Below are positions 42,066 to 47,429 of a DNA stretch of 64,000 bases, in pieces (position 1 is the stretch's first letter; each line of letters starts with the position of its first letter). Source of the stretch: an uncultured bacterium. GTDB taxonomy: Bacteria; Verrucomicrobiota; Verrucomicrobiia; Verrucomicrobiales; DEV007. The stretch spans positions 96,001 through 160,000 of the forward strand of contig CAXBMO010000011.1 of NCBI GenBank assembly GCA_963977015.1, written 5' to 3'. A program made the translations under genes and the position numbers. The notes beneath the pieces were generated by a model. It saw only the letters and a program-made list of their open reading frames with translations, had not been told where the DNA came from and made no database searches.

Positions 42066-42242
42066 TTGCTGGGTCAATAAGGCACTAACGCCAGGCAAAC
42101 TCACAGTATCGCCATTTGGCGGCCGCACGATGCTACCATGATTCGTTTGAATGGCAAAAAACTTCGCTTTTTGCGCTTTCGTGGACATGTTGATCCCCCC
42201 TGCGTTTGGCCACGGCGGCCACCAACGCGGTGAGATTTGAGT

Positions 42243-43316
42243 GTGACTCCCCAACTGATCAGCATTGACGAAATTCAGGATTTTTCGGAATTCAGCGAAG
42301 TCGTCGACGTGCGTTCTCCTTCCGAATTTGCGGAAGATCATTTGCCCGGGGCCATCAACTTGCCGGTTTTGTCTGATGAAGAACGGGCCATCGTCGGAGA
42401 CCTCTACCACAATGAATCGAAGTTTACGGCGCGTCGACATGGCGCGGCATTGGTAACGCGAAACATTTCGGAGATGCTGGCCGGGCATTTCTCGGTCAAG
42501 CCGGGGGACTATCAGCCTTTGGTGTATTGCTGGCGTGGTGGTCAGCGTTCCAACAGCCTGGCCACGCTTCTGACCGCCATTGGTTGGAGGGTGAGAATTC
42601 TGAACGGGGGTTACAAGGCCTACCGAAGTTGGGTGATTCGCAGCCTTGAAGAAGGCTTTGAATGCCCGGAGTTACGGCTGTTCATCGTTGCCGGGCTGAC
42701 CGGATCCGGGAAGACCCAGATGCTGCATCAGCTGAGGGCGCGAGGCGAGCAGGTTCTCGACCTGGAGGCGCTGGCGAATCATCGAGGCTCAATTCTCGGG
42801 AGCGAACCGGGAAGCCGCCAGCCTCACCAAAAGCGATTTGAAAGCCGATTGGTGGGGGCCCTGCAAAGTTTTGACCGATCTCGTCCGGTGTTTGTGGAGT
42901 CGGAGAGCCACCGTGTTGGTGAACTCTACGTTCCGGGATCGTTGTGGAAATCGATGAAGGCTTCGCCGGTCATCGAATTGACGGTGGATCTGGAGGAACG
43001 AGTTCAGTTTCTTTGCCGGCATTACCTGCATTTTCAGCAAGATCAGGACCGTTTGATCGAGTGCTTGGATGTGCTTCGGCGCCTCCAGGGCAATAGTCGG
43101 GTGGAGCACTGGATCTCTTTGGTGCGCGATGGCGATTGGGATGGACTGGTTCGATCCCTGTTGGTCGATCACTATGACTCGGCCTACAAGAGCTCGCGTT
43201 CCAAGTTTGAAGGGGAGCGCCTCGGAACGATTTCCCTGGATTCGCTGTCGGAAAGCGGGATCGAAGCTGGAGTGGATCAGGTTTTGGAGCTGAGTTCCGG
43301 CGTCGGCGTGAAATAA
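42243..43316 (+). CDS. mnmH: tRNA 2-selenouridine(34) synthase
   Basis: Rhodanese domain DVRSPSEF...HLPGAINLP, YCWRGGQRS and GGYKAYR; P-loop GLTGSGKT; DLEALANHRGS; QKRFES. Confidence 0.95.
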   Translation: MTPQLISIDEIQDFSEFSEVVDVRSPSEFAEDHLPGAINLPVLSDEERAIVGDLYHNESKFTARRHGAALVTRNISEMLAGHFSVKPGDYQPLVYCWRGGQRSNSLATLLTAIGWRVRILNGGYKAYRSWVIRSLEEGFECPELRLFIVAGLTGSGKTQMLHQLRARGEQVLDLEALANHRGSILGSEPGSRQPHQKRFESRLVGALQSFDRSRPVFVESESHRVGELYVPGSLWKSMKASPVIELTVDLEERVQFLCRHYLHFQQDQDRLIECLDVLRRLQGNSRVEHWISLVRDGDWDGLVRSLLVDHYDSAYKSSRSKFEGERLGTISLDSLSESGIEAGVDQVLELSSGVGVK

Positions 43317-44602: not shown

Positions 44603-45925
44603 TCAATCGGACGATGCCTGGAAGAAACCTTCCGCCTTGTGGCGCGTCTCTTCGAATTCCAGCTCCGGCTCAGAGTCGGCGACGATGCCCGCCCCGACGT
44701 GAAAATGGAGGGTCTCGTTCTCGCGAACCGCGCTCCGGATCACAATGTTGAACTGGCTCTCTCCGTTCAGCCCGAAGTAACCGATCGTTCCGGTGTAAAC
44801 TCCCCGCTCAATCGGCTCCAGCTCGGCGATGATCTCCCGCGCACGCTTTTTGGGCGCGCCGGTAATCGAGCCGCCCGGAAAACAGGCCTTCAACGCATTC
44901 ACATGGTTGATTTCGCTCTTCAGCCGACCTTGCACGGTGGATACAAGATGGAAGACCTGTTCGTAGGTTTCGAGCTCGAGAAGCCGGGATGCCTGCACAC
45001 TGCCAAACTCGCAAACCTGGCCAAGATCGTTGCGCTCCAGATCCGTGATCATGATCAACTCCGCGCGCTCCTTTTCCGATGTGATCAAATCATACCGGCT
45101 CCGCTCATCCCTTTCCGTGTCCCGAAACCGGGGACGGGTTCCCTTGATGGGGCGGGTTTGGATCCCTCGTCCGCTCAGCTTCAGAAACTGCTCGGGCGAC
45201 GATGATAAAATCTGGCGATTGCAAAGATTCAGGTAGGCGGAAAACGGGGCCGGGGAGGCGTCGCGAAGCGCTTCGTAGAAGGCGAACGGGTCAAGGTCGG
45301 GAGGGAACGGCGCCTGAAAACGCCGGGTCAAATTCACCTGATAGATGTCTCCCGCCGCGATGTAATCTTTCGCCTTGCGCACGAGACGGCAGAACTCCGC
45401 CTTGCCCATGTCCGCCTGGAACTCCAGGGGCGGGAGCGCCGGCCTGGGTTCGGGCGCATCTGGGAGCCGTTGCGCGAGCCCGCCGTAGTCGAACCATTCC
45501 GCCGTGCGGTGCCGGAACACGAGAATCCTTGGATAAAGCCCGAACTCGAACTCGCCGTTGTAGGCAATCGTTCCAAAGGCGCCGCCGAGCGGAAACCCCA
45601 GATCCGGGGCCGATTCGATCGCATTGTCGCGCAGCCAACGCTCCAGCTTCGAGGTATCGCGGAGATCCCCGTGCACCACCTCCTCGGGCTCGAAGGTCAA
45701 CAGCGAAATCTCATCGCCCGATTGGCTCAAGCTCGACGAGTCGAGGAAAATCGCTTCCGGCTGATCCGCAATGCGGGCAAAGACCTCATTCGGCTGCACA
45801 TCCGGCCAGTCGAGGCGGTTCAGGAGATTCTTGCTGTGGTTGGGAACAATCGGACTCACAAGCGAACGCCTAATGGAACCTGTTCCGGCCAAAGCGCAAT
45901 CCCGCGTTGTGTCAGTTTCCGCCAA
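44603..45925 (-). CDS. pabB: Aminodeoxychorismate synthase component I (PabB/TrpE family); true start probably 60-80 nt downstream of 45925
   Basis: GDIYQVNL, SSSPEQF, PIKGTRPR (PabB-type), DLERNDLG, FPGGSITGAPK and GAGIVADS. Confidence 0.85.
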   Translation of the reverse strand: MAETDTTRDCALAGTGSIRRSLVSPIVPNHSKNLLNRLDWPDVQPNEVFARIADQPEAIFLDSSSLSQSGDEISLLTFEPEEVVHGDLRDTSKLERWLRDNAIESAPDLGFPLGGAFGTIAYNGEFEFGLYPRILVFRHRTAEWFDYGGLAQRLPDAPEPRPALPPLEFQADMGKAEFCRLVRKAKDYIAAGDIYQVNLTRRFQAPFPPDLDPFAFYEALRDASPAPFSAYLNLCNRQILSSSPEQFLKLSGRGIQTRPIKGTRPRFRDTERDERSRYDLITSEKERAELIMITDLERNDLGQVCEFGSVQASRLLELETYEQVFHLVSTVQGRLKSEINHVNALKACFPGGSITGAPKKRAREIIAELEPIERGVYTGTIGYFGLNGESQFNIVIRSAVRENETLHFHVGAGIVADSEPELEFEETRHKAEGFFQASSD

Positions 45926-46003
45926 AAACAGCGCATAAATCCCGGAAGATGGCTCGAAAAAAGGAGAGACAAGACACGTTCAGCCCTCTAACATGTTGGC
46001 GTC

Positions 46004-46705
46004 ATGAAAATCTCCTTTCTGATCGCCACGTTGTTGGCCATGTGGAGCGCAGGGCTCCATGCGCGAACCTGGACCAGCGCCGACGGCACCAAAACCTTCG
46101 AAGCAGAATTACGGTCCTACCACGTCGCCAGCGGAACCGTCGCGGTGGTTACCGACAAGGGAGTGCTGATGAAGTTTCCGGCCAGCAAACTCTCGGAGGC
46201 AGACAACGCCTACCTCAAAGAGCAAAACGCCCTCAAGCCCGCCCCATCCGAGGACCCTGCCGAAATGCTTTCGTCCCAGGCCGTTGGCGAGGAGGTTCTG
46301 AAAGCCAAGCTCCATCGCCTTGAAGGCAAACGCTTCCGCCGGGCCGAGATCGACAAGGCGCCGGAATATTACATTCTCTACTACTCGGCTTCCTGGTGAG
46401 GCCCCTGCCGTGCTTCTGTTCCACAGGTTGTGGAGAAATACAACAGTAGCGTCGCCGACAACCCCAAGGTTGCCATGATCCACATTTCCCAGGACACCAG
46501 TGAGGACGCTGCGGAGAGTTGGGCGGTCAAGGAAGGCTTTCCCTGGCTCACCGTTCTCCCCGGGGATGTGAAACGCAGCGATTTGTCGAAATACCGCACC
46601 CGGCCCGTCGTGCCATTCTACACCCTGGTCGATGCCTCGGGGAATCAGTTGGCGACCGGATCCGGCGCCGTTTTCGCCAAAGCGGCGGAAGTCGGCGCTC
46701 AGTAA
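46004..46705 (+). CDS. Predicted selenoprotein (233 aa): signal peptide + SHD1-like domain + thioredoxin-like domain with UxxC; TGA 46397-46399 read as Sec132
   Basis: The two track ORFs share a frame and read YYSASW-TGA-GPCRASVPQVVEKY. RTWTSADG...LSEAD is SHD1-like. FPW and VVPFYTLVDASG complete a Trx fold. A hairpin follows the TGA. Confidence 0.85.
46414..46437 (+). promoter_or_regulatory. Candidate bacterial SECIS element
   Basis: TCCACA-GGT-TGTGGA perfect stem (46420-46434), extendable by TTC/GAA. The apical GGU begins 26 nt after the TGA. Confidence 0.7.
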
Positions 46706-46748
46706 ATCACCGTTCGCCCCGTGCGCAGCGCGCCGTCTCAGCGCCGTC

Positions 46749-47429
46749 TCAGCGCTGTTTCTCCCAAGGAAACCGCACGTAATCGGTCGACCAATTGCCG
46801 CTTTCCTTCTTCTGCTCGAACAGGAGGCGGTTCGGTTCCCGTTTCGCGCGATCGATCCCCTCGGTCTCGCCGATGTGATGGATCACCATCTGCACGTCCT
46901 CGCGCATCTCCGTCTCCACCACCGGATCCGCGCGATAAAAGAAATGGATATCGGTCTGGCCATAGTTCCCCACAAAATCTTCGTCACAGCCGCCGACTTC
47001 CCAATACACCTTCCGCGTCAGCAGCATCGTGCCCGGGTGAATTTTCGTCTTGCCGCTTTCCGGATCAATCCGCTGAAACTTGTAGATCTTGCGCTCGTTC
47101 TTCTCCGCCAACGCCACCACCTTTTCCGCTTCGGACGGAGGCAGAATGTGGTCCATGTCGCTGTGGAACATCCACTCCGTCTCGCACACCTTTGTCCCCA
47201 GATTTCGCGCCCCGCCGATGTTGCAATACATGTCCTCCATCACGCGGTAGATCTCCAGGTGAAAGTCCGGTTCCCCGACCAATTCCGACACCGGCGTTTT
47301 CGAGCAATCGTCCACCAGCATGATGCGAATCTGCTGCTTCAGTTCCTCCGGATAGCTCGCCCAGTTCTCCAGCTGCCGCTGCAGCATTTCCGTCTGGTTG
47401 TAGTAGGTGTAGATGAGTGTCAGTGCCAT
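46749..47429 (-). CDS. GT-A fold glycosyltransferase (GT2/GT7-like)
   Basis: LVDDCS, GGARNLG, DMD (DxD) and VGGCDEDFVGNYGQTD. Confidence 0.85.
   Translation of the reverse strand: MALTLIYTYYNQTEMLQRQLENWASYPEELKQQIRIMLVDDCSKTPVSELVGEPDFHLEIYRVMEDMYCNIGGARNLGTKVCETEWMFHSDMDHILPPSEAEKVVALAEKNERKIYKFQRIDPESGKTKIHPGTMLLTRKVYWEVGGCDEDFVGNYGQTDIHFFYRADPVVETEMREDVQMVIHHIGETEGIDRAKREPNRLLFEQKKESGNWSTDYVRFPWEKQR

Follow-up and report, generated by a model that had tools for sequence, protein, structure and literature searches.

The window analysed here, a 64,000-nucleotide stretch of DNA from an uncultured bacterium of the order Verrucomicrobiales, carries at positions 46004-46705 a gene that, judged from its sequence and from those of its relatives, is intact, with a single in-frame TGA (codon 132) predicted to be read as selenocysteine (Sec, U). 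Very probably, this Sec-decoded gene encodes an exported redox protein built of a Sla1 homology domain 1 (SHD1) and a thioredoxin-fold domain, which would be recycled by DsbD and docked through its SHD1. The reading is carried by the intact frame, the occurrence of either TGA or Cys at one position in homologues, a hairpin downstream of the TGA, the Sec machinery of the genome and the folds of the two domains. The gene is a previously unannotated member of the known class of UxxC thioredoxin-like selenoproteins; no description of its fusion of SHD1 to a selenoprotein was found in the literature searched.

A single frame interrupted by one TGA

Under the standard code, two open reading frames (ORFs) are listed at the locus: 46004..46399 (+, 131 aa, ATG start) and 46430..46705 (+, 91 aa, GTG start). 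They share a frame (46430-46004 = 426 = 142 x 3), and the sole in-frame TGA is found at 46397-46399, in the context YYSASW-TGA-GPCR. Read-through of 46004-46705 yields a product of 233 residues ending at TAA 46703-46705. A previous interpretation of the window made from its letters alone (the sequence-only reading) had claimed that the two ORFs are one frame split by this TGA, and that the TGA replaces the first Cys of a WCGPC-type motif. The coordinates and the frame arithmetic bear out the former claim, and the W-U-G-P-C motif, with Cys at the same place in homologues, the latter. The following features were assigned:

46004..46705 (+): complete selenoprotein gene with U at codon 132; a single frame with one TGA, with full-length orthologues that have one TGA or none
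46397..46399 (+): UGA codon 132, placing Sec at the N-terminal nucleophilic position of U-G-P-C; TGA and Cys are aligned in homologues
46406..46408 (+): Cys135, the resolving cysteine of U-x-x-C; an invariant column of the 34-protein alignment

Eleven public runs were listed for the locus, none of them of RNA. The fidelity of the assembly was examined by comparing contigs from four public runs (X1-X4) over positions 45900-46800, of which X1, X3 and X4 cover parts only. The X1 contig (276 nt, 46251-46526, 0 differences) spans the site and reads TGA. The X2 contig (1,276 nt, from another study; 45900-46542, 13 differences) also spans it and has no difference at 46397-46399; 8 of the 10 differences listed within the coding sequence fall at third codon positions. 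The TGA was therefore retained in contigs of two studies, although X1 or X2 may represent the source sample, so that at most one of them is an independent confirmation. Single-base errors do arise in draft assemblies (here 51 contigs), here such an error would have put TGA in place of TGC or TGT, and an assembly error at the TGA was among the findings that the sequence-only reading had named as refuting it. The probability of such an error is practically negligible: besides the X1 and X2 contigs, TGA is present in a 70%-identical orthologue (genome G002) and in 23 other homologues, and it is because of these comparative data that an assembly error is untenable.

TGA or Cys at one position in homologues

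The read-through protein was searched against 61 related genomes; the counts given here refer to the matches listed, and 121 weaker matches lie outside this set. Among them, 25 homologous genes in 17 of the 61 genomes contain exactly one TGA, in every case at the first position of U-x-x-C after S-A-S-W or a close variant. All 19 extracted stop-free homologues have Cys at the equivalent position. The TGA forms reach down to ~27% identity with the window protein. Nine of the 25 are full-length SHD1-thioredoxin orthologues, ranging from 70% (G002, same genus) to ~33% identity, one further SHD1-thioredoxin form ends at a contig edge, and the remainder are shorter paralogues comprising only a leader and the thioredoxin domain. 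Among 34 full-length proteins, there is no variation at W23, L63, D67, A129, S130, W131, C/U132, P134, C135, D164, P204 and G213. A tBLASTn-type search had been suggested earlier as a check, with Cys or a conserved TGA expected at position 132; this was the outcome, the in-frame UGA being aligned with Cys and both flanks being conserved (25 TGA and 19 Cys forms).

The sequence past the TGA was compared with that of the G002 orthologue. Of 101 codons, 43 are identical, 35 differ synonymously and 23 change the amino acid, and nucleotide differences at the first, second and third codon positions number 17, 11 and 46, respectively. Protein identity is 77% downstream of the TGA, compared to 63% upstream. 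From the third-position bias and the higher downstream identity it follows that the part past the TGA is translated in the same frame.

These data bear directly on the possibility that the TGA is a true stop, leaving either a recent pseudogene or two separate genes, one for an SHD1 protein of 131 aa and one for a thioredoxin remnant of 91 aa. The standard code does yield exactly these two ORFs, and public databases hold many 128-137-aa entries of the same kind. Nevertheless, a true stop is highly improbable in view of the fixed position of the TGA in 25 genes of such divergence and the strong third-position bias and 77% identity of the codons beyond it. Moreover, the 91-aa ORF contains neither the CxxC nor the fold's first strand, and it would begin at a GTG inside an arm of the hairpin described below; this hairpin covaries, and TGA forms occur together with the Sec machinery.

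In a tree built from 44 homologues, the clade that includes the window protein has 18 rows, of which 11 are Sec and 7 are Cys forms. The short paralogues make up another clade, whose 14 rows are all Sec; the distribution of the Sec label requires at least three to four changes. The window's own genome (G000) encodes at least three TGA-containing thioredoxin-like genes. One of its short paralogues, which belongs to the all-Sec clade (L050, G000:C2:344445-344819), has a leader and a W-U-G-G-C motif, and a thioredoxin-like gene (L054, G000:C1:180710-180907) has W-U-G-P-C; in both, the TGA is at the first Cys. L054, a different thioredoxin paralogue, was left out of the tree and of the hairpin alignment (A1, see below). 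In the complete genome of a relative, three TGA-containing thioredoxin-like genes were observed within 3.5 kb (G041:C1:3392883-3396380; L070, L022): an SHD1-thioredoxin orthologue, a thioredoxin-only copy 97 nt later and a third, 238-aa form ~2 kb upstream.

Of 301 genomes sampled evenly across the phylum, 26 had a match at E<=1e-18. Outside the own genome, all matches were Cys forms, with TAG in one row. This sample says little about the reach of Sec forms, because family f1, where most of them lie, is represented in it by the window's own genome alone.

A SECIS-like hairpin downstream of the TGA

A gapless alignment of 48 nt from the TGA onward (A1) was prepared from the 25 TGA forms; L054 was omitted because its hairpin lies in another register. 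RNAalifold returned a single hairpin, in which columns 23-28 pair with columns 34-39 around a 5-nt loop. All 25 TGA forms have, 19 nt past the TGA, a hairpin with a 6-bp stem and a loop of 5 nt containing G and U, which resembles a Sec insertion sequence (SECIS) element:

46419..46435 (+): SECIS-like hairpin, with 5' arm 46419-46424, loop 46425-46429 (AGGUU) and 3' arm 46430-46435; RNAalifold and covariation

Pairing was found in 91.3% of the cells of the alignment, compared to 70.4+-2.2 in 500 shuffles, and it fell to 33-56% when the partner was slid by 1-3 columns. Changes on both sides occur in five of the six pairs; there are 26 double-change cells versus 6.1+-1.9 in the shuffles, a value reached by none of the 500. 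The stems differ in sequence (CCAC/GUGG, GCAC/GUGC, AAGC/GCUU, AAAC/GUUU and UCGC/GCGA), with G30, U32 and G34 of the alignment invariant; the usual loop is A-G-U-U-G, and that of the window is A-G-G-U-U. The strain represented by the X2 contig has a T>C change at 46419, which converts the closing U.G pair of the stem into C-G. In the Cys forms (n=19), pairing at these columns is limited to 44.7% of cells, and none of the 19 forms five or more pairs. The compensatory changes also alter the encoded residues (P-Q-L-V-E, A-Q-L-V-Q, K-Q-L-A-S), and for this reason protein constraint alone does not explain the stem changes.

Bacterial SECIS elements have been characterised as a stem-loop that directly follows the UGA and has G in its small apical loop (PMC1088965). 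The 6-bp stem, the 5-nt loop and the invariant G30 and U32 agree with this description (the fold of the single sequence is not significant). Two unrelated TGA genes of the same genome provide an independent check: in the DsbD gene (W-U-L-T-C), a hairpin with the loop A-G-U-U starts 24 nt past the UGA, and the SelD gene has one with an (A)-G-U-U loop, further downstream of its TGA.

The genome encodes the selenocysteine machinery

A search of the genome for the Sec genes, also proposed beforehand, identified all four components above their cut-offs. The tRNA-Sec gene (C5:263260-263354) was detected by Infernal with 61.8 bits (cut-off 47) and has the anticodon loop CUUCAAA; selA, selB and selD scored 498, 293 and 376 bits, respectively, all above curated cut-offs. 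SelD (L018, G000:C5:255715-256644, minus strand) itself contains one in-frame TGA (S-S-C-A-G-U-A-S-K), and its gene lies on the same contig as tRNA-Sec, ~6.6 kb away. The gene for SelA is present in 31 of the 61 relatives. Among the matches listed, it accompanies the TGA forms in 16 of 17 genomes, and a TGA form occurs in only 1 of the 30 selA-negative genomes; as these genomes are kin, the co-occurrence should be taken as a check of consistency, not as a statistic. Together with the TGA/Cys alignment and the hairpin, which the sequence-only reading had not mentioned, the Sec machinery supports its identification of the gene product as a UxxC redox-type selenoprotein.

Read-through of UGA132 without Sec, either by near-cognate suppression (inserting Trp or Cys) or by charging tRNA-Sec with Cys at scarce selenium, would give a functional product in the case of Cys, the residue aligned in relatives. 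Such decoding is very unlikely: a hairpin at SECIS distance in the TGA forms only, combined with the near-perfect co-occurrence with selA, argues for SelB-dependent decoding. In addition, several homologues (L028, L034, L036, L037, L043, L047 and L049) end at an ordinary TGA stop, so TGA is not a general sense codon here.

A second selenium-utilisation trait was observed 2.7 kb upstream of the selenoprotein gene. The window region 42237-43316 (+) encodes a 359-aa rhodanese-domain protein, tRNA 2-selenouridine(34) synthase MnmH/SelU (NF008752, 444 bits, cut-off 266), and genes for a BamB-like propeller protein and a PabB-like enzyme are located between the two.

Domain architecture of the product

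The remaining features of the protein, from the N-terminus onward, are:

46004..46063 (+): predicted Sec-type signal peptide, residues 1-20 (MKISFLIATLLAMWSAGLHA), with putative cleavage before R21; sequence reading
46064..46234 (+): SHD1, a small beta-barrel plus helix, residues 21-77; Pfam, profile and model
46235..46279 (+): low-confidence linker, residues 78-92, with a predicted local distance difference test score (pLDDT) <50 for residues 82-90, variable and gapped in the alignment
46280..46702 (+): thioredoxin-fold domain, tryparedoxin/TlpA-like, residues 93-233; Pfam and Foldseek
46613..46615 (+): Pro204, at the cis-proline position of thioredoxin folds; invariant in the 34-protein alignment (sequence position)

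The AlphaFold2 model of the full protein has a pLDDT of 88.8, with 54-59 in the leader. The leader comprises a basic residue, a hydrophobic stretch and a small-residue end (...G-L-H-A), and a lipobox Cys is absent. All 34 aligned members open with a variable hydrophobic leader followed by R-T-W-T, which is conserved in at least 90% of them.

An SHD1-like domain had been recognised in the sequence-only reading. The Pfam model SHD1 (PF03983) matches residues 20-75 with 19.6 bits, below its gathering cut-off of 23.7, but homology and a fold in common with the solved SHD1 of yeast Sla1 confirm the assignment. A profile built from 25 SHD1 domains matched PDB 2hbp (yeast Sla1 SHD1) at E 4.4e-7 over 51 positions, and the model of the domain (pLDDT 93.3) has 2hbp as its best PDB match, with a template modelling (TM) score of 0.78 and a root-mean-square deviation of 1.6 A (Foldseek E 5e-3). 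In the family, 17 of 34 members match SHD1 at E<=0.001, the best at 1.7e-8. The SHD1 part alone (residues ~5-90) was also seen to match the N-termini of many longer frames (~200 to ~1,000 aa) in relatives. On sequence grounds, SHD1 looks like a promiscuous module of the order's exported proteins, placed behind their leader peptide.

The claim that read-through restores a complete thioredoxin-like fold was likewise substantiated. Thioredoxin_8 (PF13905) matches residues 121-214, across the TGA, with 40.2 bits (cut-off 27), and is matched by all 34 family members; Thioredoxin (PF00085) scores 35.7 bits (cut-off 23.5), AhpC-TSA 30.3, and the Redoxin model matches too. Foldseek searches with the thioredoxin domain placed tryparedoxins first (E 1e-7, target-normalised TM 0.64-0.71), followed by ResA and StoA (TM ~0.65). 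Sequence matches in the PDB include a' domains of protein disulfide isomerases, pneumococcal Etrx-type proteins and tryparedoxins. The position of the CxxC motif and the conserved Pro agree with those of thioredoxin folds, and in the model U132 stands just before helix 133-149. The Cys-form relatives have W-C-G-P-C or W-C-P-P-C, the motifs of reducing thioredoxins and tryparedoxins.

Relation to known systems and annotation

Thioredoxin-fold UxxC selenoproteins were described in 2005 from the Sargasso Sea, including a "thiol-disulfide isomerase-like protein" (PMC1088965). The Global Ocean Sampling survey ranked them with the marine selenoprotein families of highest abundance (PMC2398784), and they are tabulated in a 2026 review (PMC13188914). 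The window protein resembles these selenoproteins in having Sec as the first residue of CxxC, a thioredoxin fold, widespread Cys homologues and a marine bacterial source, as well as a SECIS hairpin just downstream with a small G-containing apical loop, and in being truncated by gene callers. It shares the UxxC motif with the "thiol-disulfide isomerase-like" family (Zhang et al. 2005; cd02966), a family compared by its description only. It differs from the UxxC families in its SHD1, a domain not mentioned for them in the portions of these descriptions consulted; the term "SLA1" occurs 0 times in the review (PMC13188914). Full-text literature searches found no publication linking SHD1 with a selenoprotein, none of the papers listed for Planctomycetes or Verrucomicrobia dealt with SHD1, and the deep-Sep paper (PMC12013277) does not mention thioredoxin or Verrucomicrobia.

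Three further groups of proteins are related to parts of the product. Tryparedoxins, which are Cys proteins of the eukaryotic cytosol, receive their electrons from trypanothione. The best fold matches are to them (PDB 1o81, 1qk8, 1fg4 and others) and to the nucleoredoxin type of PF13905, with a sequence E of 2e-8, and some of the W-C-P-P-C or W-C-G-P-C relatives have been named "nucleoredoxin" by the Joint Genome Institute; unlike tryparedoxins, the window protein has a leader peptide, SHD1 and Sec. Characterised systems of the TlpA/ResA type depend on DsbD or CcdA. With TlpA/ResA/StoA/CcmG-type and pneumococcal Etrx-type proteins (PDB 1st9, 3erw, 4hqz, 2yp6), the window protein has in common a single thioredoxin domain and export (predicted here); 4hqz is matched in sequence at E 1e-8 over residues 76-224, and the NCBIfam matches to ResA, StoA and DsbE are weak (~21 bits versus cut-offs of 123-210). 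It differs from the TlpA/ResA types in having neither a membrane anchor nor a lipobox, in its SHD1 module and in Sec replacing Cys. Finally, SHD1 of yeast Sla1 binds NPFxD endocytic signals in the eukaryotic cytoplasm. The window domain resembles that of Sla1p (PDB 2hbp; PF03983) in profile and top fold match, and differs from it in being located behind a predicted bacterial signal peptide and fused to a redox domain.

The protein database stores the product of the gene as a fragment of 131 aa. About half of 96 database relatives are N-terminal stumps of 128-149 aa, the named ones mostly as "hypothetical protein", and the full-length Cys forms are named "thiol-disulfide isomerase/thioredoxin" or "nucleoredoxin". 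An entry from Rubritalea tangerina, a cultured relative, likewise looks like the truncated call of a TGA form. That standard pipelines would fragment such genes had been foreseen, and both the own 131-aa entry and dozens of "hypothetical proteins" of 128-137 aa confirm this. Against NCBIfam, the best scores were 20.7-26.5 bits with cut-offs of 97-344 (ResA NF002854, StoA NF041202, DsbE TIGR00385 and thioredoxin TIGR01068 were considered), and none of its selenoprotein-specific models (e.g., SaoT NF040730, HUIPC NF047660, VPGUxxT NF041383) matched at E<=0.01.

Proposed mechanism and points against it

We infer that the product is an extracytoplasmic thiol-disulfide reductase or isomerase. UGA132 would be decoded by SelB and Sec-tRNA(Sec), directed by the small hairpin 19 nt downstream, and the 233-residue product would be exported via its cleavable signal peptide. 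Sec132 would then attack a substrate disulfide (or oxidised thiol), forming a selenenylsulfide that is resolved by Cys135, and the oxidised enzyme would be re-reduced from the cytoplasm, probably via the DsbD of this genome. A single gene of the DsbD_TM family was identified there (L071, G000:C12, minus strand; match C12:129828-130463); its frame continues through a TGA in the last CxxC, within the C-terminal thioredoxin-like domain (...FTADW-U-LTCKQ...). The likeliest role of SHD1 is that of a docking domain for a partner or substrate.

It is unlikely that the gene encodes a genuine selenoprotein which is cytoplasmic or membrane-anchored, or which is of the oxidase/peroxidase type instead of a disulfide reductase. 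Export and the catalytic direction are predictions, and the AhpC-TSA and Redoxin models match as well. However, the N-terminus resembles a cleavable leader and has no lipobox Cys, the W-C-G-P-C and W-C-P-P-C motifs of relatives are of the reducing type, and the nearest folds are tryparedoxin and ResA, not peroxiredoxins.

Several observations weigh against the reading of the gene as a Sec-decoded, exported and DsbD-recycled enzyme. Being located in coding sequence, the hairpin owes some of its conservation to protein constraint, and the relatedness of the sequences means that the shuffle controls overstate its significance. When folded alone, the 64 nt past the TGA give -17.5 kcal/mol (z = -0.38), a stability equalled or exceeded by 64 of 200 shuffles; a scan of the whole window at Rfam gathering thresholds returned 0 matches. 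ARAGORN called 0 genes at the tRNA-Sec locus. Genome G014 (90% complete, 720 contigs) has TGA forms, and selA was not found in it. Export of the product is predicted from its N-terminal sequence, and the electron donor, the substrate and the role of SHD1 are putative. ORF clustering of 22 loci within +-1.5 kb revealed no conserved neighbours pointing to a partner, the flanking clusters being shared at most by three genomes of one genus.

Gene neighbourhood

Upstream of the gene, in divergent orientation, is a gene for a PabB-like chorismate-binding enzyme, and downstream, in convergent orientation, are genes for glycosyltransferases and a methyltransferase. A promoter and terminator scan of 45850-46850 detected 0 promoters and 0 terminators. 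Just past the stop codon, at ~46728-46755, the 11-nt unit GCGCCGTCTCA is repeated in tandem; one copy is absent from the X2 contig (11 nt missing at 46730).

Implications for selenium use in Verrucomicrobia

A broader picture may be considered for marine Verrucomicrobiales, in which a selenium-based reducing relay operates in the envelope, from Sec-containing DsbD to a set of exported Sec-containing thioredoxin-like enzymes, the present one docked by SHD1, and in which selenium supply could tune the ratio of products. We regard this extension as rather doubtful. If it were true, SHD1 would act as a peptide-motif docking module selecting substrates, as in yeast Sla1, and the 131-residue SHD1-only product would compete for the docking sites of the full-length enzyme. 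Selenium supply could set the ratio of the full-length to the 131-residue product because bacterial Sec insertion competes with termination.

For the gene family itself, the consequences are more immediate. No NCBIfam model would rescue the truncated entries, and estimates of selenium utilisation in marine Verrucomicrobia shift once the truncated calls are corrected. Alignment A1, whose A-G-U-U-type loop recurs in the DsbD and SelD genes of this genome, could be the starting point of a SECIS model for this lineage, with which more selenoprotein genes might be found. Through the fusion described here, bacterial SHD1 gains a defined enzymatic partner, and the natural Sec/Cys pairs of the family make it possible to ask under which conditions extracytoplasmic redox enzymes benefit from selenium.

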